Assembly (NCBI GenBank): GCA_964368185.1
Contig: CAYJAA010000001.1
Span: 13,959-67,924, forward strand
Reading direction: 5' to 3'
DNA length: 53,966 bases
DNA from: an uncultured Lachnospiraceae bacterium
GTDB taxonomy: Bacteria > Bacillota > Clostridia > Eubacteriales > Anaerofustaceae
The notes under the pieces were generated by a model that made no database searches, was not told where the DNA came from, and saw only the letters and a list, made by a program, of their open reading frames with translations. Below, one piece after another: positions 3,141 to 42,994 of this stretch (its first letter is position 1; the number at the start of each line of letters is the position of its first letter). Position numbers and translations under genes: made by a program.

Positions 3141-3255
3141 AGTTAAATGAAATTATAATAGTTCCTTTATTATAATGTGTACCCATAACTCAGAATATTT
3201 GTTACAGTATATTATAGGGAAGGGTTTTGAGCATTCCTAATTACTGCACAAAATA

Positions 3256-3297
3256 AAACTGCCATTATCAAAAATTGATAATGGCAGTTTGTTTTTT
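3256..3297. terminator. Bidirectional terminator (serves dfx on the - strand)
   Basis: 16 nt arms aaactgccattatcaa / ttgataatggcagttt, with A-rich and T-rich tracts on either side. Confidence 0.75.
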
Positions 3298-3326
3298 ATA
3301 AGCATTAACTATTTACGCCTATTATT

Positions 3327-3710: not shown

Positions 3711-3728
3711 AATTTTTCACCTCTTTTA

Positions 3729-4271
3729 TTAATAATTAGTTGCTTTAAGCTCAAAGTGGGCTTGTGGGTGGTCGCATACCGGACAAACCCCAGGAGCATT
3801 CTCACCTTCTGCTATATGACCGCAATTTCTACAATGCCAAAGAACTTTTTCTTCTCTTTTAAATACTTTTTTGCTATTAATATTTTCAAGAAGGTCTCTA
3901 TATCTTTCTTCGTGTTCTTTTTCAATTTTTGCAACACCTTCAAATAATTTAGCGATGTCATCAAAGCCCTCTTCTTTTGCATCTTTTGCCATACGAGCAT
4001 ACATTTCAGTCCACTCTTCATTTTCCCCATTTGCTGCACTTTCTAAATTTTCTATAGTGCTTTTAATACTTCCACCACAAAGCAGTTTATACCATATTTT
4101 TGCATGTTCTTTTTCATTTGCTGCTGTTTCTTCAAATATTGCAGCAATTTGCTCATAGCCTTCTTTTTTTGCTTTTGATGCAAAGTAATTATACTTGTTT
4201 CTAGCTTGACTCTCTCCAGCAAATGCTTCCATTAGATTTTTTTCTGTTTTTGTTCCTTTTAAATTTACCAT
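3729..4271 (-). CDS. rbr: Rubrerythrin
   Basis: Ferritin-like EGES..ExxH motifs ([28 protein letters not shown]) plus a C-terminal rubredoxin CRNCG...CPVC. Confidence 0.95.
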
Positions 4272-4493
4272 TTTCCAAGTCTCCTTTTTTTATTTCATAT
4301 AATTATTTTATCTTCTTATATTTAATTAGGCTTAATGTGTAAAGTTTATACTACAAAAGAAAAAGTATTAATAACTAATTTACATTTGTATTATTAAGGT
4401 TTAAAACATAAGCTAAAAAGCACATTATTATTATTGCCATTTTAAGATAAAAAATTTAATAAATTTTTTGTTATTTATTTTTTATATAAGCTT

Positions 4494-6578
4494 CTAAGCA
4501 TGAGAGGCTTTTGCGCTTAAAGCCTTTTCGATTATTTTTTCACTAAAAGCTGTTGGAACTTCCTCATATCTTTCAAATTCCATTGTAAATGAGCCCCTTG
4601 CTTGAGTCATAGACCTAAGCTCTGTTGCGTATTTAAACATTTCTCCAAGAGGAACTTCTGCATTAATTTGTTGCTTTTTGCCCATAGGCTCCATTCCCAT
4701 AATTTTCCCTCTTTTTTTGTTTAAATCTCCAATAATATCTCCCATATAATCTTCTGGAACAGTAACGCAAACTTTATAAATTGGCTCTAATAAAACAGGA
4801 TTTGCGGCTTTTATCCCTGCTCTATAAGCAAGAGAAGCTGCCATTTTAAAAGACATTTCATCAGAATCAACAGGATGATATTTTCCATCAAATAATGAGG
4901 CTTTTAGTCCTACTAAAGGATATCCTGCAAGAACTCCCTTTTGAATACAGTCATTTAAACCTTTTTCTACAGCTGGGATAAAGTTTCTAGGAACAGATCC
5001 CCCAACTACATTATCCACAAAAGTAAGACCCCCACTTAAATCTCCACTTGCCTCAAATGTTATATTTACAACCCCATACTGTCCTCTTCCTCCAGATTGT
5101 TTTTTATGTTTACCTTCTGCTGTTGCTTTTTTCTTAATTGTTTCTCTATAAGGAATAATTGGGGTAGTTAGTCTTACATCTACAGAAAATTTACTTTTAA
5201 GTTTATCCGCTACAATCTCAAGGTGCATATCTCCCATACCATAAAGAACAGTTTGATGAGTTTGAGCGTCTCTATTAACTACAATAGTTGGATCTTCTTC
5301 TATTAGTTTATTCAGCCCTACTCCAAGCTTATCCTCATCCCCCTTTGCTGCAGGCTCAATCCCTGTAAATATGATAGATTGAGGGAATTTAATAGGATTA
5401 AACTTAATTTTATCTTTTATATCACATAGTGTATCACTAGTAGAAGCAGAAGTCAGCTTTGAAAAAGCTCCTATGTCTCCTGGATACATTTGAGATATTT
5501 CTATTTGTTTTTTCCCTAAAAGGGTATATATATGAGATATTTTTTCTTTTTTATCTTTACTTGCATTATAAATTTCCATACCTGTATTTAAAACACCACT
5601 TTTAATTTTAAATAAAGAAAGTTTTCCTACATATGGATCAGCGATTGTTTTAAAAACAAAACAACTCACTCCTTCATCATCACTATAATGGCGCTGTGCA
5701 TTTTCTCCGTCTTGGTCTACTTTAGCTCCTTTTGCCTCAAGAGGTGTTGGGAAGTTATAAACAATAGCATCTAAAAGTTTATCTATTGCTACACCTTTTA
5801 ATGCACTAACACAAAATACTGGTATTAACTCTTCACTTACAATAGCAGTTTTAACCCCTGAATGAAGTTCTGCTTCTGTTAGTGTTCCATCTTCATCTTC
5901 GAAATATTTTTCCATTAAAGCTTCATCTGTAGTAGCCGCAATTTCAAAGATAATATCTTTATATTTACTAGATTTTTGTTTTATATTTTCAGGAACATCA
6001 CTAATGGTAATTTTCCCATTTTCATATGTATATGCTTTATTATCAAATATATCTGCTACACAGTTAAATCCTACACCTTCGTTAGCAGGTATTTGAAAAG
6101 GCACAATCTTAGGGCCTGTAAGCTCTCTAAGTTCTTTCATCACTTTCTTAGTATCTACATTTTCTCTATCAAGCTTGTTAATTACAAAGGCAATTGGAAT
6201 CTTTCTTTCTACTGCCATTTCATAAGCTTTTTCCGTTCCAACCTCAACCCCATTTACAGCGTCTACTACAATTACTGCACAGTCCGCTACTCTAAGGGCA
6301 CTACACTGCTCTCCAATAAAATCAAAATATCCTGGTGTATCTAAAATATTAATTTTAACTCCACCGTGTTCAATTGGTAAAAGGGAGGTAGAAATAGAAA
6401 TTTGCCTTTTTTGTTCAATTACATCATAATCTGATATAGTAGAACCCTCTTCTACTTTTCCCAGCCTATCAATTAGCCCTGCTTTGTAAGCTATTGCTTC
6501 ACTAAGCAGGGTTTTCCCACTGCCTCCGTGGCCTAATAATGCGATATTTCTAATGTCTTTAGTCTTATAAGTTTTCAT
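4494..6578 (-). CDS. Elongation factor G paralog (translational GTPase)
   Basis: G1 motif GHGGSGKT, plus DTPG and NKLD, and EF-G domains II-V. I chose the ATG at 6578 because its spacing from GAAAGGG is better than for the ATG at 6587. Confidence 0.85.
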   Translation of the reverse strand: MKTYKTKDIRNIALLGHGGSGKTLLSEAIAYKAGLIDRLGKVEEGSTISDYDVIEQKRQISISTSLLPIEHGGVKINILDTPGYFDFIGEQCSALRVADCAVIVVDAVNGVEVGTEKAYEMAVERKIPIAFVINKLDRENVDTKKVMKELRELTGPKIVPFQIPANEGVGFNCVADIFDNKAYTYENGKITISDVPENIKQKSSKYKDIIFEIAATTDEALMEKYFEDEDGTLTEAELHSGVKTAIVSEELIPVFCVSALKGVAIDKLLDAIVYNFPTPLEAKGAKVDQDGENAQRHYSDDEGVSCFVFKTIADPYVGKLSLFKIKSGVLNTGMEIYNASKDKKEKISHIYTLLGKKQIEISQMYPGDIGAFSKLTSASTSDTLCDIKDKIKFNPIKFPQSIIFTGIEPAAKGDEDKLGVGLNKLIEEDPTIVVNRDAQTHQTVLYGMGDMHLEIVADKLKSKFSVDVRLTTPIIPYRETIKKKATAEGKHKKQSGGRGQYGVVNITFEASGDLSGGLTFVDNVVGGSVPRNFIPAVEKGLNDCIQKGVLAGYPLVGLKASLFDGKYHPVDSDEMSFKMAASLAYRAGIKAANPVLLEPIYKVCVTVPEDYMGDIIGDLNKKRGKIMGMEPMGKKQQINAEVPLGEMFKYATELRSMTQARGSFTMEFERYEEVPTAFSEKIIEKALSAKASHA

Positions 6579-27876: not shown

Positions 27877-28554
27877 TTAATTATTTGCCAGCAGATGTTT
27901 CAATTCAGAAATACTTATATATTTATCATTAAGTTTTCTGTGCAACATAGCATGGCAGTTAGGGCAAACAGGGATTAAGTCGGTTTCAGGATTAACAGAG
28001 TATTCCTCATTGATTTCACTTATAGCAACTATATGGTGTACATGGATAAAACCTTTTCCAATTTCACCATAAATATCTTCAAAGTTCATACCACATATAT
28101 GACAATAACAACCATAGTGATCAATGCATTTTTTTCTAGCTTCAGCACTTCGTTCATATTTATTAACGGTAACTGTTACTTTTGCACCTTCAATGCAACT
28201 ATCTGTTTGGTCAGAATCAGGAAATACCTCAGCACTTAAATTATTAAAATAATTGTCACTTAGAAATGTAAAAAACTGTGGCAATGCAGCACGGATATAA
28301 CCTTTTTCTAAATAAGATGACTGTCGTCTATCCTTTAAAAAAGTTAATAAGCTTTTGTAAAAATCACTATTTAAATCATATACGTAATCACTTATTTCTT
28401 TTATTCTATGTAGACTTTTTTCATTTATAATTGTTATCTCTAAAAATTCACAAAGATACTTAATAGCATTATGGTATGAGCGAGCTTTGCCAGATTCTAC
28501 CCCAGGAGTAGTGCAGAATATTTCGAATTCTTCTAACATAATTTTCATTTGCAT
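27877..28554 (-). CDS. HNH endonuclease with an uncharacterised N-terminal domain (restriction-like)
   Basis: The C-terminal CxxC...HVHHI....N......DLIPVCPNCHAMLH is a classical HNH/His-Me finger. The start could be the ATG at 28554 or at 28548. Confidence 0.8.
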   Translation of the reverse strand: MQMKIMLEEFEIFCTTPGVESGKARSYHNAIKYLCEFLEITIINEKSLHRIKEISDYVYDLNSDFYKSLLTFLKDRRQSSYLEKGYIRAALPQFFTFLSDNYFNNLSAEVFPDSDQTDSCIEGAKVTVTVNKYERSAEARKKCIDHYGCYCHICGMNFEDIYGEIGKGFIHVHHIVAISEINEEYSVNPETDLIPVCPNCHAMLHRKLNDKYISISELKHLLANN

Positions 28555-28930: not shown

Positions 28931-28959
28931 TTGACAAGATTGAAATCTTATGTTAAAGT
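28931..28959 (+). promoter_or_regulatory. Candidate promoter of the type I R-M operon (TTGACA-17-TAAAGT)
   Basis: A consensus -35 at 28931..28936 and a weak -10 at 28954..28959. The spacer contains the inverted repeat aagatt-ga-aatctt. Confidence 0.35.
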
Positions 28960-29009
28960 AAATTTAAAGAAATATTTCTCGATTTGCAATGTTATTTTTT
29001 TACCACAAC

Positions 29010-29615
29010 ATGAAAGAGGTGAGCGCTATTAAATTAAGTGAATTATGTGAGATAAGGACAGGCCTTATTCTCTCAAGAAAACAAGCTAAATCTAAAACCC
29101 AGTTTTACTATAAACAACTTACCCTTAAATCTATTGAAGACACTGGATATATTGCTATAAACTTTACTGAAGATTTTTATAGCAAAGAAGAGTTAAATCA
29201 AGACTACTTAACAAAAAAAAGGGATATCATCGTTAGGCTGTCCACCCCTTATACTGCTGTTTTAATAGATGAAGATAGAGAAAACTTGGTAATCCCTACT
29301 CATTTTGCAGTTGTAAAATGCAAGAAAAAGATAATCACTCCAAAGTATTTATATTGGTTTTTAAACTCTAAAATCGTAAAAAAAGAATATCTTAAAAACA
29401 ACACTAGTAATATGATAGGAGCAATTAGACCTTTATTTATAGGAGAGCTTGAAATTAAACTACCAACAATGGACAAGCAAGAAAAAATAGGAGAATTTAA
29501 TATTCTTGCTAAAAAAGAAGAATATTTACTAACTAAATTAGAAAAAGAAAAATCTAAATATACAAGTTTCATACTTGAAAATCTTTATATGAAAGGAAAT
29601 AAAAATGACAACTAA
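29010..29615 (+). CDS. hsdS: Half-size type I specificity subunit (single target-recognition domain)
   Basis: About 200 aa: one TRD followed by a conserved helical tail (LPTMDKQEKIGEFNILAKKEEYLLTKLEKEK). It overlaps the hsdM start by 11 nt. The start is uncertain: ATG 28989, ATG 29010, or an in-frame ATT at 29028 behind AAAGAGGTG. Confidence 0.7.
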   Translation: MKEVSAIKLSELCEIRTGLILSRKQAKSKTQFYYKQLTLKSIEDTGYIAINFTEDFYSKEELNQDYLTKKRDIIVRLSTPYTAVLIDEDRENLVIPTHFAVVKCKKKIITPKYLYWFLNSKIVKKEYLKNNTSNMIGAIRPLFIGELEIKLPTMDKQEKIGEFNILAKKEEYLLTKLEKEKSKYTSFILENLYMKGNKNDN

Positions 29616-31134
29616 AACAGATATCCAAAACACTCTTTGGAAAGCTTGTGATAGCTTTCGTGGAAAAATCGACAGTTCAAGATATAAAGACTATATCCTA
29701 TCTATGCTTTTTGTAAAATACCTTAGCGATGTAAACAAAGAGAGAAAAGCTGAATATGAAAAGCAATATAATGGAGACGCCGATAGAATAAAAAGAGCTA
29801 TGAGCCGTGAGCGATTTGCCCTTGACGAAGTTTCAACTTTTGACTATTTATATGAAAATAGAGGGGACAGTGAAATAGGACAAAAAATAAACATCGCCCT
29901 TTCCCATATTGAAGAACACAACAGCGGCAAACTTCGCAATGTTTTTAGAGCTATTGACTTTAACTCTCAAGTTGATTTTGGTGAGGCTCGTGAAAAAAAT
30001 GCTGTTCTTAAAAATTTACTCTCTGATTTTTACGAGCTTGACTTAAGCCCTTCTAACCTAGATAGTAGCGATATAATCGGGGACGCTTATGAATATATGA
30101 TAGCCAACTTTGCCTCTGATGCAGGGAAAAAGGGTGGAGAATTTTTCACCCCAAGCACTGTTTCAACCCTTGTTGCAAAACTTGTTAAACCAAAGGAAAA
30201 TGACAGGATTTACGACCCGACTTGTGGGAGTGGTGGGCTACTTCTAAAGGCTTATAAAGAGGCTCCAAGCAAAAAAGTTGCCATATATGGACAGGAGAAA
30301 AATGCACAAACTTGGGCGCTATGTACTATGAATATGTTTTTACATAACATTGATGATGCAAACATTAAACAAGGGGACACCCTTGCTAACCCTCAGCATT
30401 TAGAAAATGATGAACTTATGAAATTTCAAGTAATCTGTGCTAATCCTCCTTTCTCATTCGATAAGTGGGACAGTGGGTTTTTAGGGGAAGTTACAACCGA
30501 CAGTAAGAAAAAAGCAAAAATGGAAGCAAGCCTTGACCCTTATAAAAGATTTTCTATGGGAGTTCCTCCCTCTTCTAAGGGAGACTATGCTTTTGTTTTA
30601 CACATGCTTGCTAGCTTAGATGCAAATGGTGGAAGAATGGCTGTTGTTCTTCCTCATGGGGTTCTTTTTAGAGGAGCCAGTGAGGGAAAAATTCGTAGGG
30701 AAATTATTGACATGAACTTACTAGACGCAGTTATCGGCCTACCATCTAATTTATTTTTTGGAACAGGGATTCCTGCTTGTATTTTAGTCTTTAAGAAAAA
30801 TCGCCCTAACCGTGACATACTTTTTATTGACGCAAGTGGAGAGGGAAACTTTGAAAAGGGTAAAAATCAAAATGTACTTCGCATAGAAGATATTAAAAAA
30901 ATAGTCTCTACATATGAAAGCCGTGAGACTTTAGAAAAATATAGCTATAAGGCTACACATGAAGAGATAAAAGAAAATGATTATAACCTAAATATTCCAC
31001 GATATGTGGATACTTTTGAGGAAGAAGAAATGGTGGATATTGAGGTGGTTAAGGAAAGTATTAAGAATATAGAAAAAGAGCTTAAAGAAGTGCAAGAGAA
31101 GATGAAAAAATATTTGGAGGATATGGGGGTGTAA
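29605..31134 (+). CDS. hsdM: Type I restriction-modification N6-adenine DNA methyltransferase
   Basis: The HsdM N-terminal domain (LWKACDSFRG), SAM motif DPTCGSGGLL, and catalytic NPPF. Confidence 0.95.
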   Translation: MTTKTDIQNTLWKACDSFRGKIDSSRYKDYILSMLFVKYLSDVNKERKAEYEKQYNGDADRIKRAMSRERFALDEVSTFDYLYENRGDSEIGQKINIALSHIEEHNSGKLRNVFRAIDFNSQVDFGEAREKNAVLKNLLSDFYELDLSPSNLDSSDIIGDAYEYMIANFASDAGKKGGEFFTPSTVSTLVAKLVKPKENDRIYDPTCGSGGLLLKAYKEAPSKKVAIYGQEKNAQTWALCTMNMFLHNIDDANIKQGDTLANPQHLENDELMKFQVICANPPFSFDKWDSGFLGEVTTDSKKKAKMEASLDPYKRFSMGVPPSSKGDYAFVLHMLASLDANGGRMAVVLPHGVLFRGASEGKIRREIIDMNLLDAVIGLPSNLFFGTGIPACILVFKKNRPNRDILFIDASGEGNFEKGKNQNVLRIEDIKKIVSTYESRETLEKYSYKATHEEIKENDYNLNIPRYVDTFEEEEMVDIEVVKESIKNIEKELKEVQEKMKKYLEDMGV

Positions 31135-31142
31135 ATGGTATT

Positions 31143-32123
31143 ATGTTTGAACTATATTCACAAAGGATAAAAAATCAAGAGGGTGAGTCAGAGGTTTTCA
31201 TTTATAATGAATTTTCCAGCAAGTTTAGAAATCAATTTATTTACTGCGTGAAAGATTGTTATAATAGTATGGAGGGGAAAATAGATAAAATTAATAGAAA
31301 TATTGACTTTTTTCCTGATGCATATGAAATAGGCTTTCTTTGCCTTGATAGCATGGCTGAGCTTATATATAGCATATTTAAAAGGGAAAAAGGACTAGGA
31401 GATGAAGTCGGTTCCGATTGGGATGACTTAACAAAGTACATACAAGAATGTGATAATACTGACTTTTTAGATATGATGGATTTAATAGCACATTTGATTT
31501 TTAATAAATCAAAAAATATATTTTCTGACATATTTGGCGAAAACATATTTAAAAATCACTTTAGTGGATATATAGATGATGGAATTAACCATATCAACCT
31601 TAGACTAAAAGAAAATTTACTAGGCTACGAAATAATAGATGGAAAAGTTATAGCTAAAACCAACACAGTAACCCACGAACATATTATAAAACCAGCATTA
31701 AAACTATTGATAGATGAAGATTTTCGAGGAGCTGAAGAAGAATATTTATTAGCATTTGAAAACTTTAAAAATGGCGAAAATGAAAATGCTATAATTAATG
31801 GAAATAAAGCCTTTGAAAGTGTCCTAAAGACTATTTGTGGAAAGCTAGAATATCAATACGACCCTTCAAAAGCCTCGGCTAAAAAATTACTAAACATTTT
31901 AGAGGAAAATAATTTTTTCCCAGGTTATTTAAAAAACCATTTATCATCTTTAATAAATTCTCTTGAAACTGGAGCTCCAGTGATAAGAAATAAAGTAGCA
32001 GGACATGGACAAGGGGAAAATGTCCGAAAAGTGGGAGATGAATATGTTGAATATGTTTTAAATTTAACTGCCACCAACATATTATTTCTCTACAAAATCT
32101 ATAAAGGCAAGGTGGCTAAATGA
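31143..32123 (+). CDS. Abi-like protein with a C-terminal HEPN-type motif (AbiJ / Abi_C-like), embedded between hsdM and hsdS
   Basis: The N-terminus MFELYSQRIKNQ...VFIYNEF resembles what I remember of the AbiJ-NTD4 / STM4504-type N-termini. The C-terminal PVIRNKVAGHGQG gives R282-x5-H288 (31986..32006), which fits the Rx4-6H HEPN signature. Its stop overlaps the hsdS start (ATGA). Confidence 0.6.
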   Translation: MFELYSQRIKNQEGESEVFIYNEFSSKFRNQFIYCVKDCYNSMEGKIDKINRNIDFFPDAYEIGFLCLDSMAELIYSIFKREKGLGDEVGSDWDDLTKYIQECDNTDFLDMMDLIAHLIFNKSKNIFSDIFGENIFKNHFSGYIDDGINHINLRLKENLLGYEIIDGKVIAKTNTVTHEHIIKPALKLLIDEDFRGAEEEYLLAFENFKNGENENAIINGNKAFESVLKTICGKLEYQYDPSKASAKKLLNILEENNFFPGYLKNHLSSLINSLETGAPVIRNKVAGHGQGENVRKVGDEYVEYVLNLTATNILFLYKIYKGKVAK

Positions 32124-33316
32124 ACAATGAAATAAAAGAGCGAATCACCAAAATACAAAATGGGGAAATCCCTAAGGGGTATAAAAAAACGAAAGTTGGA
32201 ATTGTGCCTAGTGAGTGGGAAGTTAAGAAGTTGGGGGAAGTTGCAAAAACTTATTCTGGTGGAACACCAAACACTAATAATAAAGAATATTATTTAGGAA
32301 CCATTCCTTTTATTCGCTCCGCTGAAATTGATAAAAAACGGACTGAATTATTCATTTCTAAACAAGGCTTAAACAGCTCATCTGCAAAAGAAGTAATTGT
32401 AGGCGACTTGTTATACGCCCTATATGGCGCTAATAGCGGAGAATGTGCTATATCCAAACAATGTGGAGCAATAAACCAAGCTGTATTATGTATCAAAAGC
32501 TCCGAAAATGTTAAATATTTATACTACTTCCTTTCAAGCAATAAAATAAAAATTATTAACACTTATTTACAAGGAGGGCAAGGCAATTTATCTGCACAAA
32601 TAATGAAAAACATCAAACTCCCTCTCCCACCCCTACCCGAACAAAACACAATAGCCGAAATACTAAGTACTGAGGATAAAGTAATTGAGCTTAAAGAAAA
32701 GCTTATCGAAAAAAAAGAAGCTCAAAAAAAATACTTAATGCAAAATCTCCTAACAGGTAAAAAAAGGCTTACAGGGTTTCGTGGGGAGTGGAATAAGGTG
32801 AGGTTGGGGGAGGTTTGTGAGATTATTAAAGGCTCTCAACTTAATAAAAATACTCTTTCAGAATATGATAAATACTATGTTCTAAATGGTGGCATTACTC
32901 CGTCAGGATATACAGACAATTGGAATGTAGAAAAAAATACTATTTCAATCAGCGAAGGTGGAAATTCATGTGGATTTGTAAATTATAATACGGAAAATTT
33001 TTGGAGTGGTGGACATTGTTACACATTGCAAGATTTAAGTATTAACATGGAAAATTTATTTTTATATTTTACTCTTAAATATAAGCAACAAACTTTAATG
33101 GAACTAAGAGTTGGGTCGGGCTTACCAAATATTCAAAAAAAATCTTTATTGAATTTCAAAGTCAACCTCCCACCCCTTGACGAACAAAAGACAATCGCTG
33201 AAATTTTATCCACTGCTAATAAAGAAATTGAACTTTTAAAAGCTGATTTAGAAAAAGAAAAAGAAAAGAAAAAAGCATTAATGCAGTTGTTGCTAACTGG
33301 GATTGTGAGGGTGTAA
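32120..33316 (+). CDS. hsdS: Full-length type I specificity subunit (two TRDs)
   Basis: Two TRDs, each followed by a conserved repeat (LPLPPLPEQNTIAEILST... and LPPLDEQKTIAEILST...). Confidence 0.93.
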   Translation: MNNEIKERITKIQNGEIPKGYKKTKVGIVPSEWEVKKLGEVAKTYSGGTPNTNNKEYYLGTIPFIRSAEIDKKRTELFISKQGLNSSSAKEVIVGDLLYALYGANSGECAISKQCGAINQAVLCIKSSENVKYLYYFLSSNKIKIINTYLQGGQGNLSAQIMKNIKLPLPPLPEQNTIAEILSTEDKVIELKEKLIEKKEAQKKYLMQNLLTGKKRLTGFRGEWNKVRLGEVCEIIKGSQLNKNTLSEYDKYYVLNGGITPSGYTDNWNVEKNTISISEGGNSCGFVNYNTENFWSGGHCYTLQDLSINMENLFLYFTLKYKQQTLMELRVGSGLPNIQKKSLLNFKVNLPPLDEQKTIAEILSTANKEIELLKADLEKEKEKKKALMQLLLTGIVRV

Positions 33317-33319
33317 AGT

Positions 33320-34165
33320 ATGAGTACTAATAAGAAAAAATTCAACACCCTTGCTAATAAAGATGAACTGCTGGAATTTCTATATACTAAAGGGAAAAAC
33401 CATAATGAGTATCATCATTATACCACTTTTGACAATGCTATTAAAATAATCAAAAATAAATCATTTTTTCTAACCCGTGGCAATTCTACAAGTATGAATG
33501 ACCAACATGAACCAACCATCAATGAAGATAGTAATATATGGGATAAAACCTACATTGGCAGTTTTGCATTTGGAGGAAATGAAAATATGGCAATGTGGGG
33601 TTTGTACGGTTTACCAAAAGAAAATGCTGTACGAATAACAATTCCGAAAAAAGCTATGGAATCTTGGTTTGATAGCATAAACGAAATTCACGGAATTACT
33701 ATAGAAAATAATGTTCCTGAATATAAGAGTGTAAATAACAAATTTGATAAATATTTATCTGATATAGTGTATATTGACACTATACAAGATCCGAATTTAT
33801 CAAAACTTTATTGGAATGATAACTCCTTGAGGATTAAACCATCAGAAAGCATAACCTCCATTGCAGATGAATTAGATATGATAGGGTTTATTAAAAATTT
33901 TGCTTGGAAATATGAAAATGAAGTTCGCCTTCTTATTCGCACGGAACCTAATACAAAGCATGAAAAAATTAGTGTTAACATACCCGAAGAAGTTACTAAG
34001 AATATATCTATTACAGCTGGACCATGTTTTAACGGCGATATAGGCGAAAGATTGAAAGAAAACCAATGCGATAACAAAGTATCTGAAAGTATATTTAAGG
34101 GCTTAGTGAACTACAAAATTTTATGCAGTATGTGCTTGCATGAAAATTTTATAAATAAGGAGTAA
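33320..34165 (+). CDS. DUF2971-like protein embedded between hsdS and hsdR
   Basis: Motifs as I remember them for DUF2971: YHHYTTFDNAIKIIKNKSFFLTRGNSTSMNDQHE, GSFAF..NENMAMWGLYG, and WKYENEVRLL. The gaps are 3 nt after hsdS and 4 nt before hsdR. Confidence 0.6.
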   Translation: MSTNKKKFNTLANKDELLEFLYTKGKNHNEYHHYTTFDNAIKIIKNKSFFLTRGNSTSMNDQHEPTINEDSNIWDKTYIGSFAFGGNENMAMWGLYGLPKENAVRITIPKKAMESWFDSINEIHGITIENNVPEYKSVNNKFDKYLSDIVYIDTIQDPNLSKLYWNDNSLRIKPSESITSIADELDMIGFIKNFAWKYENEVRLLIRTEPNTKHEKISVNIPEEVTKNISITAGPCFNGDIGERLKENQCDNKVSESIFKGLVNYKILCSMCLHENFINKE

Positions 34166-34169
34166 AATA

Positions 34170-37100
34170 ATGCTAAAAGACCTATACTTAGAAAAAAACA
34201 TCAGCCAAACCCCAGCCATAGAGCTACTTAAATCTATGGGATACATATATATTCCCCCAGAGGAGGCCCTAAGAAAGCGAGGGAGTAAATACGATGTTAT
34301 CTTAAAAGATATTCTTCGCTCACAGCTTAAAAAGCTAAATACATACACTTTTGGAGGAGAGAAAAAGGAGTTTTCCCCTGGTAATATTGAGCGTGCTATA
34401 GAAGATATAAACCTACCCCTAAATGACGGGCTTATTAAGTGTAGTGAAAAAATATTTAATATGCTCCTACTTGGTAATAGCTACTTAGAACTTCTAGGAG
34501 ATGGGAAAAGCCTTAGCTTTAATCTAAAATATATTGACTGGGATAATTTTGATAATAATGTATTTCATGTAACTGAAGAATTTTCTGTAGAAAGTCTTGA
34601 TAAAGAACATAACGCAAGGCCGGATATAGTGTTATTTATTAATGGAATTCCCTTTGGGGTTATTGAGTGTAAAACTCCACAAATTTCAGTAGAGCAAGGG
34701 ATAGAACAAATGGTTAGGAACCAAAAAACAGAGTGGATCCCTCAACTTTTTAAATTCACTCAAATTCTTGTGTCTACAAATAAAAACACTGTAAAATATG
34801 CTACCACAGGAACACCAAAAAAGTTTTGGTCTATTTGGCGAGAAGAAGACAAGAGTTTTTTAGAAAATCAACTTAATATCCATATTAAAAATAGACAAAA
34901 GACTATTCAAGATGAAAATATTATTTCACTTTTCTCAAAGGATAGAGTGAAAGACTTAATAAAATATTTTGTTTTATACGATGCTAATATTAAGAAAATT
35001 TGCAGATACCAACAATACTTTGCAATCAAAGAAGCAATGAAAACTATCACTACTTTTGACAAAAAAGGAAATCGCAAAAGTGGTGTTGTTTGGCATACCC
35101 AAGGAAGTGGAAAAAGCCTTACTATGGTTATGTTAGCAAAATTATTATTACAAGAGTTATCAAAACAAAACCCTAAAGTTATTATCATAACCGATAGGAA
35201 AGAACTAGATAACCAAATCGCAAAAACCTTTTCCCACACAAGATTAAATCCAGCAAAGGCAGCAAGTGGCAAACACTTAGTAGAGCTTATAGATAGCCAT
35301 AAAGCAGATGTTATTACTACGATAATTAATAAATTTAATACCGCTGAAAAAATGGACAGTAAAAATTTATCAAAGGATATATTTGTTCTTGTTGATGAAA
35401 GCCACCGTTCAAACTATGGTGGCCTTGCAACAAAAATGCGAACAGTTTTCCCAAATGCCTGCTATATAGGTTTTACAGGAACACCCCTTATGAAAAAAGA
35501 AAAAAACACAATGGCAAAGTTTGGGGACTTAATCCATAAATACACTATCAAAGATGGCGTAGAAGATGGAGCGATTGTTCCCTTAATTTATGAGGGAAAA
35601 TTTGTAGATCAAAATGTTGATGAAGAAAATATAGACTTATGGTTTAAACAAGTAACAAAAAGACTTAACGAAAAAGAAAGAAAAGATTTAAAAGACAAGT
35701 GGAGTAGCATTAGGCGCCTAACTTCAACTGATTCAAGAATTAAAAGAATAGCTCTTGATATTGATGAGCATTTTACTGGGGGTTATAAAAATACAGGCTT
35801 TAAAGCCATGCTTGCAACCAACTTTAAAAAAGATGCCGTTAGGTATTTAGAGTGTTTTGAAACTTTTTCTGATTTAACTTGTGCTGTTATAATCTCTCCC
35901 CCAGATATCAGGGAGGGGGCTGAAAATATTGATGATGAAATAGACGATAAAGTTCGTAAATACTGGGATAAGATGATAAAAGCTTATGGAGATGGGGACA
36001 AATATGAAGAGGCTATCAAAAATAAATTTTTAGATGGAGAAATTGATATTTTAATAGTTTGTAGCAAACTTTTAACAGGCTTTGATGCCCCAAGATGTCA
36101 AGTTTTATACATAGACAAAGAATTAAAAGAACATGGACTTCTTCAAGCTATTGCCAGAACAAATAGACTTTATGAGGGGAAAGATTATGGACTAATCGTT
36201 GATTATAGAGGGCTTATTACAAGGCTTAATGATGCTATGGATACTTATACTGGAGCAGGTCTTGAAAACTTTGAAGGTGGAGATTTAAAGGGAACGATTG
36301 TGGATATAATCTCTGTTATAGCTAGCTTAAGAGAGGCAAATAGCAATCTTTGTCAGCTATTTATCACATTAAAAAATAGTCAAGATACCGAAGAAGTAGA
36401 AAGTTATTTAGCTGATGAAAAAATTAGAGAAAGCTTTTATGATTTTGTATGCGCTTTAGGTAAGCATTTATCTATGACAATGAATTCAGAAGTTGTTTAT
36501 GAAACTATTGATAGAAAAGAGCTAAAAACTTATCAAGATAATTTTATTTTTTATTCAAAAGTTAGAAGAAGTGTTAAAGTTAGATATCATGATGCAATAG
36601 ACAATAATGAGTATGAACCCTTAATGCAAAATCTTCTTGATACTCATTTATCCGTAGCAGGACTTAATCAAATCACAAAGCCTGTTGACATATTAAATAA
36701 AGATGAATTTGAAAAAGAAATTGAAGAGCTTACCTCCCTTAAGGGAAAAGCCGATGCAATCACTAGCAGTATGACAAAGGCAATTAGTGAAAGGCGTGAT
36801 GAAAATCCTGCTTATTATGATAGCTTTTCTGAAAAAATAAAGTCCGCATTAGAAGAGTATAAAGATAAAGTTATATCAGAAAGTGAATACCTTGCAAAAA
36901 TGAAGTCTATTCTTGCAGACTTTAGAGAAAATAAAACCGATATAACTTACCCTAGTGAAATAAAAAAGAATTTACACGCCCAAGCTTTCTACGGAGTTAT
37001 TTGCGCTATACTGGATAATGAAATTAATATAAATGATTATAGTGAGATTATAACTTATGCTACTATAGAAATTACAAAAATAATCGAAAAATACAACCAA

Positions 37101-37262
37101 GTAGACTGGTCGACTAATACTACAATCCATAAAAAAATAGCACAAGAAATAGATGACTTATTCTATGAAATAGAAAAAGAAAAAGCTTTAAAATTAACAT
37201 TTGATGCTATTGACATGATTATAGAAAATGTGAAAACCGTTGCTCTTAGGAGGTTTAAATGA
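34170..37262 (+). CDS. hsdR: Type I restriction enzyme R subunit (helicase-nuclease)
   Basis: An N-terminal PD-(D/E)xK-like region (RPDIVLFINGIPFGVIECK), Walker A TQGSGKSLTM, a DESHRS box, and motif VI QAIARTNR. Confidence 0.95.
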   Translation: MLKDLYLEKNISQTPAIELLKSMGYIYIPPEEALRKRGSKYDVILKDILRSQLKKLNTYTFGGEKKEFSPGNIERAIEDINLPLNDGLIKCSEKIFNMLLLGNSYLELLGDGKSLSFNLKYIDWDNFDNNVFHVTEEFSVESLDKEHNARPDIVLFINGIPFGVIECKTPQISVEQGIEQMVRNQKTEWIPQLFKFTQILVSTNKNTVKYATTGTPKKFWSIWREEDKSFLENQLNIHIKNRQKTIQDENIISLFSKDRVKDLIKYFVLYDANIKKICRYQQYFAIKEAMKTITTFDKKGNRKSGVVWHTQGSGKSLTMVMLAKLLLQELSKQNPKVIIITDRKELDNQIAKTFSHTRLNPAKAASGKHLVELIDSHKADVITTIINKFNTAEKMDSKNLSKDIFVLVDESHRSNYGGLATKMRTVFPNACYIGFTGTPLMKKEKNTMAKFGDLIHKYTIKDGVEDGAIVPLIYEGKFVDQNVDEENIDLWFKQVTKRLNEKERKDLKDKWSSIRRLTSTDSRIKRIALDIDEHFTGGYKNTGFKAMLATNFKKDAVRYLECFETFSDLTCAVIISPPDIREGAENIDDEIDDKVRKYWDKMIKAYGDGDKYEEAIKNKFLDGEIDILIVCSKLLTGFDAPRCQVLYIDKELKEHGLLQAIARTNRLYEGKDYGLIVDYRGLITRLNDAMDTYTGAGLENFEGGDLKGTIVDIISVIASLREANSNLCQLFITLKNSQDTEEVESYLADEKIRESFYDFVCALGKHLSMTMNSEVVYETIDRKELKTYQDNFIFYSKVRRSVKVRYHDAIDNNEYEPLMQNLLDTHLSVAGLNQITKPVDILNKDEFEKEIEELTSLKGKADAITSSMTKAISERRDENPAYYDSFSEKIKSALEEYKDKVISESEYLAKMKSILADFRENKTDITYPSEIKKNLHAQAFYGVICAILDNEININDYSEIITYATIEITKIIEKYNQVDWSTNTTIHKKIAQEIDDLFYEIEKEKALKLTFDAIDMIIENVKTVALRRFK

Positions 37263-37993
37263 GTGAAACTTCTAAGAAAAAATACTTAAGCGTAGATAGC
37301 CGAGTTATTAAATATACACTAATTCAAAAAGATGTAAAAAATATTAACCTTAGAATAAAATCAAATGGGGAAATTTCTATTTCTGCAAATAAATCCGTCA
37401 GCCTAAGCCACATAGAAAATTTTATTAAAAATAAGTCTAGCTTTGTATTTAAACACTTAGATAAATTCGAAGATATGAAAAAATACACTCCTAGCAAAAA
37501 GAAGTACATAAGTGGGGAAAGCTTTTTACTTCTTGGAAAATCTTTACGCCTTAAAGTTTTAGTGTCTGAAAAAGAAAATGTGTATACTGATGGAGTTTAT
37601 CTTTTTTTAGAAGTTAAAAACAAAGGTGACTTTAAGAGAAAAGAAAAACTTATAAATACTTTCTTTGATGAAAAATGTAAAGAGTATTTTAAAGAAGTAG
37701 CAAATGATATTTATCCCATATTTAAAAAATACGACATAATCTACCCTATTATTAAAATCCGTTCTATGACATCAAGGTGGGGATCTTGTATTCCTTTAAA
37801 AAACCAAATCACACTTAACAAAAAACTTATTGAAGTGCCAAAAAATTCCATAGAATATGTTGTTCTACATGAATTTGTACACTTTATTCATCCAAATCAT
37901 TCAAAAAAGTTTTATAACTTCTTGACTATGCTTATGCCAGACTGGAAAGAGAGAAAAAGGGTTCTTGAAACTTATGCTTTTAGAGTGGAATAA
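37259..37993 (+). CDS. M48-family / DUF45 (YgjP-like) zinc metallopeptidase
   Basis: HEFVHFIHPNHSKKF is an HExxH motif in the typical YgjP context. Its ATG overlaps the hsdR stop (ATGA). Confidence 0.85.
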   Translation: MSETSKKKYLSVDSRVIKYTLIQKDVKNINLRIKSNGEISISANKSVSLSHIENFIKNKSSFVFKHLDKFEDMKKYTPSKKKYISGESFLLLGKSLRLKVLVSEKENVYTDGVYLFLEVKNKGDFKRKEKLINTFFDEKCKEYFKEVANDIYPIFKKYDIIYPIIKIRSMTSRWGSCIPLKNQITLNKKLIEVPKNSIEYVVLHEFVHFIHPNHSKKFYNFLTMLMPDWKERKRVLETYAFRVE

Positions 37994-38051: not shown

Positions 38052-39377
38052 GTGAAAGAAATCAAATGCCCAAAATGCGGGGAAGCTTTTACAGTTGATG
38101 AATCAGGATATATGGCAATTGTAAAACAAGTTAGAGATGTAGAGTTTCAAAAGGATTTAGAGGAAAGGCAAAGGCTTTTCACTGAGGCTAAGGAAAGTGA
38201 GCTTAACCTATTAAAGACAGAAGCTAAACATAATCTTGATAAAAGTCTTAGTCAGTCACAAGAAGAAATAAACAAACTAAAAGCTATTATTGAGGCCTCT
38301 AAAAGAACTAGTGATGGTGAGCTTGAAATAGCTAAAATAAAGGCTAAGGCTACTTTAGAAGAAAAATTGTCTGAATCAAAACAAGAAATAGAGCGCCTAA
38401 GGGGTGAAATTCAAAAATCTGAAATGGAAAAATCCCTTGCTATTAGTGAAGAATCTGCAAAAGGAAAGTCTGCTATTGCCAGTAAAGAACAGGAAATAAT
38501 GAAGCTAAAGTTGGAGGCTGAAAGTGTTCAGTCCTCTACAAAGCTAAAAATAAAAGTCCTTGAAGACTCCTATAAAGAAAAGCTTTTAGAAAAAGAAGAA
38601 CAAATTAGCTTTTATAAAGACCTAAAAGCAAGACAGTCCACTAAAATGCTTGGAGAAACTTTAGAACAGCACTGTGAGATAGCCTTTAATCAAATAAGGG
38701 CAACTGGCTTTAGAAGTGCGTACTTTGAAAAGGACAACGATGCAAGGAGCGGAAGCAAAGGGGACTATATTTTCAGGGAGCATACTGAGGGTGGTGTGGA
38801 GTTTATTTCTGTTATGTTTGAGATGAAAAACGAAATGGACACTACTGCTACCAAAAAGAAAAACGAAGACTTTTTAAAAGAGCTTGATAAAGATAGAAAT
38901 GAAAAAGGGTGTGAATATGCAGTGTTAGTTTCCCTTTTAGAATCAGACAACGAATATTATAATAGTGGTATTGTTGATATGTCTCACAGATACCCTAAAA
39001 TGTATGTTATTCGCCCACAATTTTTTATACCTATAATCACTCTTCTTAGAAACGCTGCATTAAACGCAGTAGAGTATAAAGAACAGCTCATTGAAGTTCG
39101 TAACCAAAACATCGATATTTCTAATTTTGAAAATGATATTATGGATTTTAAAAATAAATTTAGCTATAATTATGACTTAGCAAGTAGAAAGTTTCAAACT
39201 GCTATTAAAGAAATTGATGAGACTATTAAACATCTTGAAAAAACTAAAGCCGCCCTATTATCTTCTGAAAACAACTTAAGGCTTGCAAATGATAAAGCGC
39301 AAGATTTAACTATTAAAAAACTTACAAAAAACAACCCTACTATGAAAGAAAAGTTTGATGAGATAAAAGGAGAATAA
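38052..39377 (+). CDS. DUF2130-like protein: zinc ribbon, long coiled coil, and a PD-(D/E)xK-like C-terminal domain
   Basis: CPKCGEAF at the N-terminus, about 170 aa of E/K-rich heptads, then GDYIF...(17)...FEMKNE (D238, E257, K259; 38763..38828). GTG start behind AAGGAGGT. Confidence 0.7.
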
Positions 39378-39382
39378 ATGCA

Positions 39383-40102
39383 ATGAGTAATACGGCATAT
39401 CAAGATAAAAGTAAGACTATACTTATTAGTGCTAAAGAAGCTACTTATAAAAACAATAAACATTATTACTGTAAAAATAAAGAATGTTGTGCAATTTTAT
39501 ATCTTAGGAACAGTGATGGAATCAAATCAGCTCACTTTTGTGCTTATGCAAAGCATCCACACATACATGGTTGCTATGAAGGAATATCTAACTTTAAACT
39601 TGACAACTTTAAAGAGAATGAATTTAACTTTGATGAGTCAATAAATAATTTATCTAAAGACGGAAAAAGCACAGAAAAAAAGACCGCAACTGAGCTTCAA
39701 AAAAAAGAAACAGCTACTAGAAATTTGTCCGCTGATAGACCTTTAAAAAGCTTACGAGAAATATATTATATGTGTAAATCAAAAAAAATCAATGATAAAT
39801 ATTCAACTATAAAAATATCACATATGCTTGCAGATGAAAGAACTATGAAAATATATCAAGTATATGGACCAATAGGGGTTCGTATTGTTGAGTGCACTTA
39901 TATAGATCATGATTCTGAAAAAAATCAGATATTTATGGATTATTATGGAATGGAATTGACCCTTAATCTAAATAATCGTTTGTTTGAGGAAATAAATGAA
40001 AAATTACATATAAATAGAGAGCATAAAATTGCTATTTGTGGTGACTGGAGTGCTCGATCTGTTAGAATAACATCTAAAAGGCAGATTTATATTATAAAGT
40101 GA
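39383..40102 (+). CDS. Hypothetical protein with a Cys/His-rich N-terminal (zinc-ribbon-like) region
   Basis: YYCKNKECCAILYLRNSDGIKSAHFCAYAKHPHIHGC. It begins 5 nt after the DUF2130 stop, with AAAGGAGAA inside that gene's 3' end. I could not assign a family. Confidence 0.5.
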   Translation: MSNTAYQDKSKTILISAKEATYKNNKHYYCKNKECCAILYLRNSDGIKSAHFCAYAKHPHIHGCYEGISNFKLDNFKENEFNFDESINNLSKDGKSTEKKTATELQKKETATRNLSADRPLKSLREIYYMCKSKKINDKYSTIKISHMLADERTMKIYQVYGPIGVRIVECTYIDHDSEKNQIFMDYYGMELTLNLNNRLFEEINEKLHINREHKIAICGDWSARSVRITSKRQIYIIK

Positions 40103-40320
40103 GTGTGATGACAAATTGACAACATTTTTCTGTAATAATCCTAATAGATATGATAATACAGAGAAAAACAGTATTAGTTTACACGCTTTTTTGAATACAA
40201 TTTAAGTGCAATTTTTTATTTACGAAGAATAATAAGGTAGTAATTCTCATATAATAATATCATTACATTATTGAAGGTATTATATTTATGAGAAGTGCAA
40301 GCCGAACAGAAAGGATAGTT

Positions 40321-42060
40321 ATGAATATAAAACCTGTTGATAAAACAATAAGAGAACTTTTATTGTCAAGGAATCAATTTATTATACCACGTTTCCAAAG
40401 GGAATATTCTTGGGATAAGAAAAATTATAGCGAATTTCTTGAAGATATGGTGAAATGCCTAGAAATCAATGGTGGTAAAATATCACCTACTCAATATTTT
40501 ATTGGTACTATGCTTTTCGTTGGAGATAAAGACGAACTACAAAAACAACAACAGAGCATGGATGTAGTTGATGGACAACAAAGACTGACAACTATAACCA
40601 TATTGTTTTCTGCATTATCAGATATATTTAAAATCGAAAATGAAAAACTTCTAAGCGAACAACTTTTTAAATATATAATGACTACCGATGATAACGGAGA
40701 CCCTATACGAATATTAAAAAGCAAAACTCATTATCCTTTTTTTGCAGACTATATTCAATCAAGTGAGAAACTCGAACTTAATGATCCTTCAAGTGAAGAA
40801 GAGCAGTGTATAAAAAATACATATGATTTTTTTATAGAGATCTTAGCCGAAAATAAAATTAGACAGCTACTGCAAAAAGATTTTGGAACCGCCGACATCG
40901 ACCAATGTAGTTATATAGATATTTTAAAAGCTATAAGGGATCAAGTGCTTAATTGCACATTTGTATCAATATATACAAAAAACAAAAATCAAGCTAACAT
41001 GATTTTTGAAATACTAAATGCAAAGGGAAAAAAATTATCTAGTATCGATTTGATTAAAAATAAGATATTTGAATTGCTTGATAAAAAAGAACCATCAGAT
41101 TTTGCCACAATTACGTGGCAGGAGATTAAAGCAATCTTGAATGATGAAAATTGTGATGTTGGATTTGCAACATTTTATCGTCACTTTTGGCTTTCGAGAT
41201 ATAAAAAGTCATCAGATGCTAAATTATATGATGATTTTGTTAGCAAAATAAAAAAGAATAAAGAGGGGTATATTGAATTTTTAAAACAATTATTAAATGA
41301 TGCTAATTTATATGCAAAAATTGTAAACCCTCAAAGACAACACTTCAATAATAGAAAAGAGTATTTTGGTGTGGTTCAATCATTAAATGCTCTCTCAAAT
41401 ACATTTAACATATCACAATCTAGAATTGTTATATTAGCATTAATGAATGTAAAGTCTAAGAAGTTAATATCATTAACTGATTTTAAAAAATGCCTGTATT
41501 TTATTGAAAATTTTCATTTGGCATATAATGCGATAGGTGGTTTACCAACGAATAGACTAGAATCGATTTACTCAAAGCGTGCCATTGCGTTAAATAACGC
41601 TGATAATAAAATTGCTGTAAAAATGCAAATTTCAGAATTAAAGAAAAGTTTATCTGATATTTACATTTCATATCCTGATTTTGAAGAAAAGTTCAAACTA
41701 TTAACTTACACAAAAAAATCTGTTGCTTCAAATACTAGAACAAAATATGTTATACAAAAAATTAATTCATACTTTGAGCAGAGTGAAATTTTCTCTGATG
41801 ATTTAAGCATAGAACATATTTCTCCTGAAACAGAAAATGCAAATAATATTAATATTGGGAATTTAATTGCGTTAGAACTTGCAATAAATAAAGACGCAGA
41901 TATGTTAGGTTATTCAAAAAAGAGATCAGTATACAAGAGCTCTAAATATACTTGGGTTAATGATTTCATCAGCAAACATAAAACATGGGATCAAAAAGAT
42001 TACAATGATAGAGCCAGAGATTTAGCAAGATTATACTATCAAGAAATATTAAAAAAATAA
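40321..42060 (+). CDS. DUF262/DUF1524 (GmrSD-like) type IV restriction-type nuclease
   Basis: N-terminal IPRFQREYSW and DGQQRLTT (ParB/DUF262-like). C-terminal LSIEHISPE....IGNLIALE..INK (His-Me finger/DUF1524-like). I moved the start to the ATG at 40321, behind GAAAGGA. Confidence 0.85.
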   Translation: MNIKPVDKTIRELLLSRNQFIIPRFQREYSWDKKNYSEFLEDMVKCLEINGGKISPTQYFIGTMLFVGDKDELQKQQQSMDVVDGQQRLTTITILFSALSDIFKIENEKLLSEQLFKYIMTTDDNGDPIRILKSKTHYPFFADYIQSSEKLELNDPSSEEEQCIKNTYDFFIEILAENKIRQLLQKDFGTADIDQCSYIDILKAIRDQVLNCTFVSIYTKNKNQANMIFEILNAKGKKLSSIDLIKNKIFELLDKKEPSDFATITWQEIKAILNDENCDVGFATFYRHFWLSRYKKSSDAKLYDDFVSKIKKNKEGYIEFLKQLLNDANLYAKIVNPQRQHFNNRKEYFGVVQSLNALSNTFNISQSRIVILALMNVKSKKLISLTDFKKCLYFIENFHLAYNAIGGLPTNRLESIYSKRAIALNNADNKIAVKMQISELKKSLSDIYISYPDFEEKFKLLTYTKKSVASNTRTKYVIQKINSYFEQSEIFSDDLSIEHISPETENANNINIGNLIALELAINKDADMLGYSKKRSVYKSSKYTWVNDFISKHKTWDQKDYNDRARDLARLYYQEILKK

Positions 42061-42337: not shown

Positions 42338-42994
42338 TCACTTTAATAATATAAACTCATTTTTATTATAATCAATAATCCCTTCTTTTTTCATCTTCGA
42401 TAATTCATTTGACAACGCACTTCTATCGGCACATAAAAAATTAGCAAGCTCTTCCCTATTCATTGTTATATTAAATTTTCTTTCACTCATACTTACATAG
42501 TGAAAATATGTAAGTATCTTACCTCTTAAAGACTTTTTAGAAATTATATCTATTCTTCTATTAAGATATAAACTTTTACTAGCTAATATTTTTAACATAT
42601 TGGAGATTAGTTGTTGGTGAAAATTACAAGAAATACTACAAGATGAAATAACCTTTTTGTAATCAATAAAAACAATAACACTACATGTATTTGAAATTAT
42701 GGATACAGGGCTATTAGTGATTTCAGCACAAGCAAAAACTTCAGCAAAAATATCCCCTTGTTTAACCTGTCCTATAATAACCTCACTACCATCGTAATCT
42801 ACCTTTGTTATTTTCACATCCCCTTTGACTATTATTCCAACAGCACTTATCCTATCTCCTTGATTTAATATAATGTCCCCTTTTTTATATTCCTTAGTAA
42901 ATCCACCTAGGCAAGTAAACATAAAAGAAAAATCTTTTTTAGGAATATTGTTAAAAAGCTGAACATCTTCCATACTATTATAATATTTTTTCAT
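42338..42994 (-). CDS. Crp/Fnr-family transcriptional regulator (candidate HcpR)
   Basis: A cNMP-binding-like beta-roll followed by a C-terminal HTH (REELANFLCADRSALSNELSKMKKEG). It is divergent from the ferredoxin-hcp pair. Confidence 0.85.
   Translation of the reverse strand: MKKYYNSMEDVQLFNNIPKKDFSFMFTCLGGFTKEYKKGDIILNQGDRISAVGIIVKGDVKITKVDYDGSEVIIGQVKQGDIFAEVFACAEITNSPVSIISNTCSVIVFIDYKKVISSCSISCNFHQQLISNMLKILASKSLYLNRRIDIISKKSLRGKILTYFHYVSMSERKFNITMNREELANFLCADRSALSNELSKMKKEGIIDYNKNEFILLK

Follow-up and report, generated by a model that had tools for sequence, protein, structure and literature searches.

A DUF2971-like gene between hsdS and hsdR of a Type I restriction-modification operon, with a predicted DarT-like fold and a possible role as an anti-phage effector

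In the prr locus of Escherichia coli, prrC sits between hsdS and hsdR. A gene of the DUF2971 type (33320..34165, + strand) was found in the same position in a Type I restriction-modification (R-M) operon of an uncultured Lachnospiraceae bacterium, within a 53,966-nt stretch of DNA (contig CAYJAA010000001.1 of assembly GCA_964368185.1, positions 13,959 to 67,924 of the forward strand; this whole stretch is referred to below as the window). The locus raises the question of whether the encoded protein depends on the restriction enzyme, as a counterpart of PrrC, or acts on its own and merely shares the operon. On balance, and with some reserve, we favour the second answer, namely that the gene encodes an autonomous single-protein anti-phage effector of the ADP-ribosyltransferase (ART) type, with a DarT-like fold, co-expressed with the R-M genes and placed in a cargo slot of their operon.

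The DUF2971-like gene and its family

The open reading frame (ORF) starts with ATG, encodes 281 amino acids, and carries YHHYTTFDNAIKIIKNKSFFLTRGNSTSMNDQHE, GSFAFGGNENMAMWGLYG, and WKYENEVRLLIR. It lies 3 nt downstream of the end of hsdS (33316) and 4 nt upstream of the start of hsdR (34170). The ORF, the motifs, and both gaps had been given in a preliminary description of the window, and all were confirmed. GAGG is present 9 nt upstream of the ATG, and the Shine-Dalgarno sequence of hsdR (AAGGAG) falls within the last codons of the DUF2971-like gene, which is probably co-transcribed and translationally coupled with the R-M genes.

A search for homologues returned 128 matches, nearly all from Clostridia metagenomes and at best about 50% identical to the window protein. 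When 1.84 billion representative proteins were searched with the family profile, 2286 clusters were found at E ≤ 1e-3, of which 286 reached E ≤ 1e-30. An alignment of 32 sequences contained 26 invariant columns, among them H33, Y34, T35, N60, D61, E64, E88, A91 to Y96, W196, E199, E201, and R203, which covered every motif quoted in the preliminary description. The pattern given there for DUF2971 ([HR]-Y-T ... ND..E / [CS]F[ST]...MW..Y / E.E.R) was present in the window protein and proved invariant in the family.

The Pfam profile of DUF2971 (PF11185) matched the window protein at 21.6 bits (E 5.5e-4) over all 89 profile positions, corresponding to amino acids 92-204 (MWGLY to ENEVR). The proposed membership stood at the level of the family, since 29 of the 32 homologues matched PF11185 at E ≤ 0.01 (best E 3.3e-6), and missed the formal cut-off of 22 bits for the window protein itself. 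Four homologues already bore a precomputed PF11185 assignment. Relatives reached with the family profile passed the cut-off, including P0236 (36.8 bits), which matched the family profile at E 6e-44, and P0156 (30.7 bits). Since the homologues and these relatives match PF11185, some of them well above the cut-off, the window protein represents a divergent branch of the DUF2971 superfamily.

None of the NCBIfam models matched the window protein. Of the 5027 PADLOC models, PDC-S31 alone did so, weakly and with partial coverage (22.3 bits, E 2.2e-5); the best PDC-S31 match among the homologues had an E value of 1.6e-8. A canonical DUF2971 protein encoded at another locus (L003:3693-4811) showed the equivalent motifs YKFRT, VYCMTERYDNHTLWETY, and YEHEWR, and matched both PF11185 (40 bits) and PDC-S31 (102.8 bits, E 6.5e-30), by which PDC-S31 was identified, indirectly, as a DUF2971 family. 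PDC-S31, the sole PADLOC family matched by the window protein and its homologues, also shares with them the logic of being embedded in R-M operons; on the other hand, the match is weak (22 bits), and in L003 both kinds adjoin as distinct genes. The hsdS-hsdR interval of that locus holds two DUF2971-superfamily genes in tandem, a divergent one, a small ORF, and then the canonical 372-aa DUF2971/PDC-S31 gene (+ strand). Current PADLOC models would probably not call the window protein.

Several family members are fused to other domains. The fusions comprised an N-terminal TIR_2 domain (P0236, 440 aa), two N-terminal winged helix-turn-helix (wHTH)/MarR-like domains, a C-terminal GNAT domain, and a stretch of about 330 N-terminal residues without a Pfam match; besides P0236, fusion proteins were P0156 (416 aa), P0223 (435 aa), and P0172, P0185, P0227, and P0245 (about 610-650 aa). 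The catalytic motifs were retained in P0236, P0156, and P0172, the three fusions whose sequences were inspected.

A Pfam score just below the cut-off, together with a C-terminal tail that was modelled with low confidence, might suggest a decayed or catalytically dead remnant without a current function. We regard this as very improbable, because the ORF is full-length, the 26 invariant positions (including the putative catalytic triad) are kept across homologues of 35-50% identity, the family reaches as many as 286 representative clusters even at the stricter threshold, and the packing of the gene in the operon is intact.

Predicted fold and candidate active site

An AlphaFold2 model built with the alignment was confident (pLDDT 89.5, pTM 0.87). 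It is predicted to consist of a core with a DarT-like ART fold (about residues 30-210) and a small C-terminal domain (about residues 215-281). In a Foldseek comparison with the PDB, matches 1 to 7 were all DarT proteins (Thermus, Mycobacterium tuberculosis, and E. coli DarT1; E 2.3e-4 to 2.2e-2), with Foldseek probabilities of 1.00-0.66, compared with 0.04 for the next match. No significant structural neighbour other than DarT (PDB 7OMW, 7YK3, 8BAQ) emerged. DarT is an NAD+-dependent ART that modifies DNA bases, and the DarTG system defends against phage (cited in PMC11381338). The window protein differs from DarT in its large insertions and extra C-terminal domain, and also in its setting: a DarG-like macrodomain was found neither beside the window gene nor among the neighbours scanned in the homologue loci.

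The fold match agrees with an independent published profile analysis, which puts DUF2971 in the ART superfamily beside DarT, AbiGi, and scabin, described as DNA-acting ARTs (PMC12522546). In that analysis, DUF2971 has a conserved Tyr and ExE, and the motif-I His is poorly conserved (PMC12522546).

The putative motif I of the window protein, assigned following the same analysis, is the invariant H33-Y34-T35 (33416..33424, +) in the first core β-strand (E30-36; strand and helix positions are from DSSP of the AlphaFold2 model), and its His is a candidate for NAD+ binding. A loop after strand E48-53 carries N60-D61-Q-H-E64 (33497..33511, +), in which N60, D61, and E64 are invariant. Motif II, E88-N-M-A-M-W-G-L-Y96 (33581..33607, +), with the invariant Y96, follows strand E77-83 and extends along helix H90-96; the Pfam DUF2971 model begins here. 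It ends at motif III, W196-K-Y-E199-N-E201-V-R203 (33905..33928, +), whose ExE opens strand E201-209 and provides the candidate catalytic Glu. In the model, the elements that carry the invariant H33 (strand), Y96 (helix), and E199-x-E201 (strand) are those in which ART motifs I, II, and III, respectively, would be expected. The window protein probably possesses an intact ART active site.

The C-terminal region of about 70 residues contains the conserved G234-P235, S257, and C269-x-x-C272. The last of these (34124..34135, +) was kept in at least 90% of the homologues and lies in the low-confidence tail of the model; one might speculate on a regulatory or metal-binding role.

The ART fold is common to NADases and Tpt1-type enzymes, and a stand-alone defence protein or toxin could use it for other chemistry, as an NAD+ glycohydrolase, as an RNA 2'-phosphotransferase-like or other RNA-modifying enzyme, or as a protein-targeting ART. 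The TIR domain of P0236 is an NAD+-consuming domain, DarT is too remote a structural match for substrate specificity to be transferred, and the authors who described the DUF2971 protein Aristaios compared it with a guanine-specific ART as well as with toxins that target proteins (PMC11381338). However, the sole significant structural neighbours of the window protein are DNA-modifying DarTs, the published profiles tie DUF2971 to ARTs acting on DNA (PMC12522546), and the wHTH fusions suit a nucleic-acid context. We consider such chemistry a possibility of some standing, if an unlikely one.

Occurrence inside and outside Type I operons

The genomic contexts of the gene were compared in 36 cases, namely 28 loci on one-genome-per-species contigs, 7 metagenomic homologues, and the window. 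The gene was directly upstream of hsdR in 9 of the 28 loci, and the six of these with complete flanks showed hsdS immediately upstream; four of the seven metagenomic homologues were also located between hsdS and hsdR. Altogether, a Type I operon surrounded the gene in 14 of the 36 contexts, and each time the gene occupied the hsdS-hsdR interval. This is far above chance. The prrC-like placement noted in the preliminary description, where a survey of neighbourhoods was suggested, was thus confirmed and found to recur. The embedded copies span three HsdR lineages, with about 66%, 37%, and 27% identity to the window HsdR.

The other 22 contexts had no Type I genes nearby, and they included close relatives (47-50% identity). 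In 19 of the 28 loci, no Type I genes were detected by tblastn with the Hsd proteins of the window, and in the 10 of these loci whose neighbours were scanned, the neighbours were unrelated to R-M (e.g., GH95, lipase-like, efflux pump, peptidase, and FGE-sulfatase genes). The remaining three metagenomic homologues were found among small metabolic genes, beside a KAP NTPase, and in a conjugative element. No conserved partner gene was shared among the sampled neighbours of the homologue loci.

The tree of the DUF2971-like proteins was not congruent with that of HsdR. The proteins of L002 and L001 were 61% identical, against 40% for their HsdR, whereas the window and L002 shared 66% identity in HsdR and only 42% in the DUF2971-like protein. 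Moreover, two members outside R-M operons (L008 and L012) nested within the embedded clade. Embedded and stand-alone members were equal in length and motifs, and the former had no extra interaction module.

The question was also approached from the side of the operon, using 80 metagenome loci with the closest HsdR (L043-L122; 34-71% identity), of which 63 had at least 1.5 kb of upstream sequence. A member of the DUF2971-like family was found in none of these 63 related operons, even at permissive thresholds. Their hsdS-hsdR intervals contained 45 ORFs that were 150 aa or longer and formed 37 clusters. The cargo scanned included HAD-like (one family, in five loci), Schlafen AlbA_2, KwaB-like, DUF3800, Bro-N, KilA-N, and KAP NTPase proteins, and several ORFs had no Pfam match (e.g., L088:2683-3552 and L050:1376-2569). 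The hsdS-hsdR junction is therefore a general hypervariable cargo slot, in which the DUF2971-like gene is a rare and mobile occupant. The hsdM-hsdS junction is likewise a slot, holding RhuM, an AAA ATPase, a complete CBASS, or, in the window, an AbiJ-like gene.

The locus follows the 'guilt-by-embedding' pattern of a previous survey, in which the PDC candidates were derived from genes nested in Type I R-M, BREX, and DISARM systems (Payne et al., bioRxiv 10.1101/2024.01.29.577857); PrrC was described there as 'almost exclusively' embedded in Type I R-M systems, in contrast to such cargo. Other embedded cargo, such as RhuM (PDC-S05), AbiJ-like proteins (PDC-S32), CBASS, KAP NTPase, Schlafen-like proteins, and the rlo genes of Campylobacter, resembles the DUF2971-like gene in its slots, orientation, and tight packing. 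It differs in belonging to other protein families, and RhuM occurs at both the hsdM-hsdS and hsdS-hsdR junctions, the DUF2971-like gene at the latter only. Our literature search found no discussion of DUF2971 at the hsdS-hsdR junction specifically, and a full-text search for 'PDC-S31' found no mention of it.

These data bear directly on the idea of a guard resembling PrrC, i.e., a latent toxin silenced by the Type I complex and freed once a phage has inactivated that complex with an anti-restriction protein resembling Ocr, ArdA, or Stp. The gene has the prrC position with gaps of 3-4 nt, the embedded copies of three HsdR lineages keep to the same interval, some silencing would be needed in the absence of a nearby antitoxin gene, and PrrC offers a precedent for it (PMC2610378). 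However, 22 contexts without Type I genes, the nesting of L008 and L012 among embedded members, the likeness of embedded and stand-alone proteins, and a slot that holds dozens of unrelated genes in related operons all speak against the idea, and an obligate dependence on R-M would be at odds with the many stand-alone relatives. PrrC differs in its near-obligate linkage to R-M, compared with 14 of 36 contexts and none of 63 related operons here. The two proteins share the position of their genes and the idea that a suicide effector housed in an R-M operon serves as a second line of defence, but they are unrelated: PrrC combines an ABC-type NTPase with an anticodon-nuclease domain, whereas the window protein has a predicted ART fold and no P-loop domain was detected in it (only DUF2971 and PDC-S31 were matched in Pfam, PADLOC, and NCBIfam scans). 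We judge a PrrC-like guard to be unlikely. The R-M-associated sensor or effector role put forward in the preliminary description was thus partly supported: a defence effector is plausible, and a specific, PrrC-like relation to the R-M system found no support. The strict placement between hsdS and hsdR, the frequent stop/start overlap with hsdS, and the lack of an antitoxin could mean that, within the R-M-embedded clade, the Type I complex keeps these DarT-like enzymes inactive until a phage anti-restriction protein disables it, which is comparably doubtful; if true, this would be a second class of 'restriction guard' after PrrC, mechanistically unrelated to it and with an ADP-ribosyltransferase as its warhead.

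ARTs are deployed by phages and plasmids against their hosts, and a role outside defence was therefore considered, either as an accessory or regulator of R-M (e.g., restriction alleviation by modification of HsdR) or as selfish or anti-defence cargo of a mobile element that landed in the operon. One homologue (50% identity) is part of a conjugative element, where its neighbours include MobL, T4 coupling protein, DpnD-PcfM, and resolvase genes, and a fold search of BFVD found uncharacterised phage proteins of the same fold. Against this, only one locus of the subfamily was found among 2.9 million viral contigs (IMG/VR), many stand-alone copies are chromosomal with no mobile-element genes nearby, the genes that fill the same slot are typical defence genes, and the validated DUF2971 member is an antiphage system (PMC11381338). 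We consider a non-defence role quite improbable. A phage origin of the gene was rejected on the basis of the single IMG/VR locus.

The homologue in the conjugative element (P0005, in L031:1-9502) is the closest to the window protein. It is followed by a 49-aa ORF, and an SprT-like gene and a serine recombinase gene are also nearby.

Proposed function and the surrounding defence island

Our favoured reading, a stand-alone anti-phage ART carried as cargo, can be outlined as follows. Upon phage infection, the DUF2971-like protein would transfer ADP-ribose from NAD+ to a target, most likely a nucleic acid as for DarT, since DarT is the sole structural neighbour, wHTH fusions exist, and Aristaios has a transcription phenotype. 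The modification would halt phage transcription or replication and the infection would be aborted, which would provide a second line of defence once restriction has failed. Because no macrodomain or other conserved neighbour was seen in the loci examined, the latency of the enzyme may be built into the protein itself, perhaps by way of its conserved C-terminal domain (about 70 residues), or the enzyme may be controlled in trans. The location between hsdS and hsdR would reflect a permissive hypervariable slot rather than a need for the restriction enzyme. A defence role is supported by the surrounding defence island (with an HNH gene, the Type I system, an AbiJ-like gene, and GmrSD), by the TIR and wHTH fusions, and by the near-absence of the subfamily from viral contigs; the occurrence of the gene both inside Type I operons and alone supports autonomy.

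The closest functional comparison is Aristaios, a 316-aa DUF2971 protein encoded on the Lactococcus plasmid pUCCL641_199, which is a validated single-gene system of the abortive infection (Abi) type and blocks phage transcription (Grafakou et al., NAR 2024, PMC11381338; PMC13064643). Aristaios and the window protein share the PF11185 annotation, the single-gene organisation, a similar size (316 vs. 281 aa), and an AlphaFold-predicted ART fold. They differ in that Aristaios was matched by its authors to a guanine-specific ART (5ZJ5) and the window protein matches DarT, and in that Aristaios is plasmid-borne and was not reported to be embedded in R-M. The two were compared by description; a tblastn search of 72,556 PLSDB plasmids with the window protein gave no match.

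Several observations weigh against our reading. As regards family and fold, the window protein falls 0.4 bits below the PF11185 gathering cut-off of 22 bits, and when the family was compared by hhalign with one canonical DUF2971 sequence, motif III was the only part to align, at a probability below 1% (not significant). The match to DarT is distant (TM 0.33-0.44, root-mean-square deviation of about 10 Å, identity 8-12%), and the family profile had no matches at E ≤ 10 among all PDB sequences, so that the likeness to DarT is visible by fold alone. As regards function, Aristaios is linked to the window protein by its family label alone, and no enzymology, such as NAD+ binding or ADP-ribose transfer, was found for any DUF2971 protein in the literature searched. 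To this extent the statement in the preliminary description that DUF2971 has no assigned biochemical function still holds, but both a fold and function prediction (PMC12522546) and the antiphage activity of Aristaios (PMC11381338) have been published. As regards context, the embedded copies always occupy the hsdS-hsdR interval and usually abut hsdS (1-7 nt overlap or 1-3 nt gap); this arrangement fits cargo and would also fit a stoichiometric coupling to the R-M complex. Finally, one close homologue resides in a conjugative element, where a role in element establishment or anti-defence is conceivable.

The operon itself opens with a half-size hsdS with a single target-recognition domain (28989..29615, +; Methylase_S E 4.8e-7, Specificity_I E 3.6e-16), which overlaps the start of hsdM (29605..31134, +; N6_Mtase E 1.3e-106, HsdM_N). 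It continues with a gene combining AbiJ_NTD4 and DUF7014 (31143..32123, +; PF18863 E 4.6e-16, PF22809 E 1.1e-26, a weak PDC-S32 match of E 3e-7, and NCBIfam STM4504/CBY_0614 at 175 bits) and a full-length hsdS with two target-recognition domains (32120..33316, +; Methylase_S E 3.8e-60 in two stretches, PADLOC Specificity_I E 4.7e-75). Downstream of the DUF2971-like gene are hsdR (34170..37262, +; 1030 aa, with HSDR_N, SWI2_SNF2, T1R_D3-like, and T1RH-like_C domains; REase_I E 7e-176) and a gene for a YgjP-like metallopeptidase (37259..37993, +; PF01863 E 1.2e-54). The latter gene also follows hsdR in L001-L007, L010, L034, L038, and L041 and is usual for these operons, and the order half-size hsdS, hsdM, hsdS, hsdR, and YgjP gene was repeated, with other genes in between, across many related operons. 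The half-size and full-length hsdS could provide the Type I system with two specificities.

A candidate operon promoter (TTGACA, a 17-nt spacer, and TAAAGT, with TG) was found at 28931..28959 (+) by a consensus scan alone, in which promoter-like sites in the operon region were no more common than in shuffled sequence, making this weak evidence. Internal promoters, terminators, and repeats, including repeats for hsdS shuffling, occurred at chance level, and none was convincing inside the operon. The DUF2971-like gene gave no signal of foreign composition; the GC content was about 30% across the whole operon.

None of the 28 loci with a homologue of the DUF2971-like gene contained the AbiJ_NTD4-DUF7014 gene, which is for this reason regarded as a second, independent cargo embedded in the same operon; a two-gene system formed by the two was rejected on the same ground. 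The Type I operon lies in a defence island that covers about 14.5 kb and is bounded by guaA (ending at 27730) and a gene for a Crp-like regulator (42338-42994, minus strand). The island further contains an HNH endonuclease gene with a weak Type IV match (27877-28554, -), a DUF2130 gene (38052-39377, +), a gene for a 239-aa protein without a family match (39383-40102, +), and a GmrSD-type Type IV restriction enzyme gene (40288-42060, +). The GuaA protein was 66-69% identical to its counterparts in Alkalibacter and Alkalibaculum, and 76% identical to its best match, which puts the host near Alkalibacter and the Eubacteriales within the Clostridia; the housekeeping proteins of the host were singletons in clusters at 90% identity.

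Three further observations were made at the homologue loci. In loci of HsdR lineage A, a basic 57-aa ORF (MATNPPKGDGHRNGAVK...KGVRKEK) directly follows the DUF2971-like gene (L002:8807-8977, L003:3460-3615, L034:6862-7035, L035:1131-1304, L038:6825-6998, L039:5280-5453, and L040:5294-5467). It was 90-100% identical between loci, and the DUF2971-like genes beside it varied far more than the ORF itself. It was rejected as a general partner, being absent from the window and from lineage-B loci. In L034, a complete CBASS (SAVED effector, SMODS cyclase, and E2-CBASS; 2011-4819, +) separates hsdM from hsdS in an operon whose hsdS-hsdR junction carries a DUF2971-like gene. In a Lentisphaeria metagenome-assembled genome (L022:7998-10382, +), the DUF2971-like frame runs into Amidohydro_2, and a simple ORF caller predicted an ORF of 794 aa, which may reflect either a genuine fusion or an artefact of assembly or frame.

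By itself, the DUF2971-like gene opens no new concept, as its kind is already known from DUF2971, Aristaios, and PDC-S31. It adds to the DUF2971 ART-like defence candidates a sizeable branch that is currently unannotated. The window protein itself escapes both the Pfam cut-off and NCBIfam, and in PADLOC it and its homologues are matched weakly. In one lineage of Clostridia Type I operons, the hsdS-hsdR junction was shown to be a hypervariable cargo slot, which is useful for the discovery of defence genes by embedding. With its compact and well-modelled structure and a predicted intact H-Y-ExE site, the window protein is a reasonable candidate for the first enzymology of a DUF2971 member.

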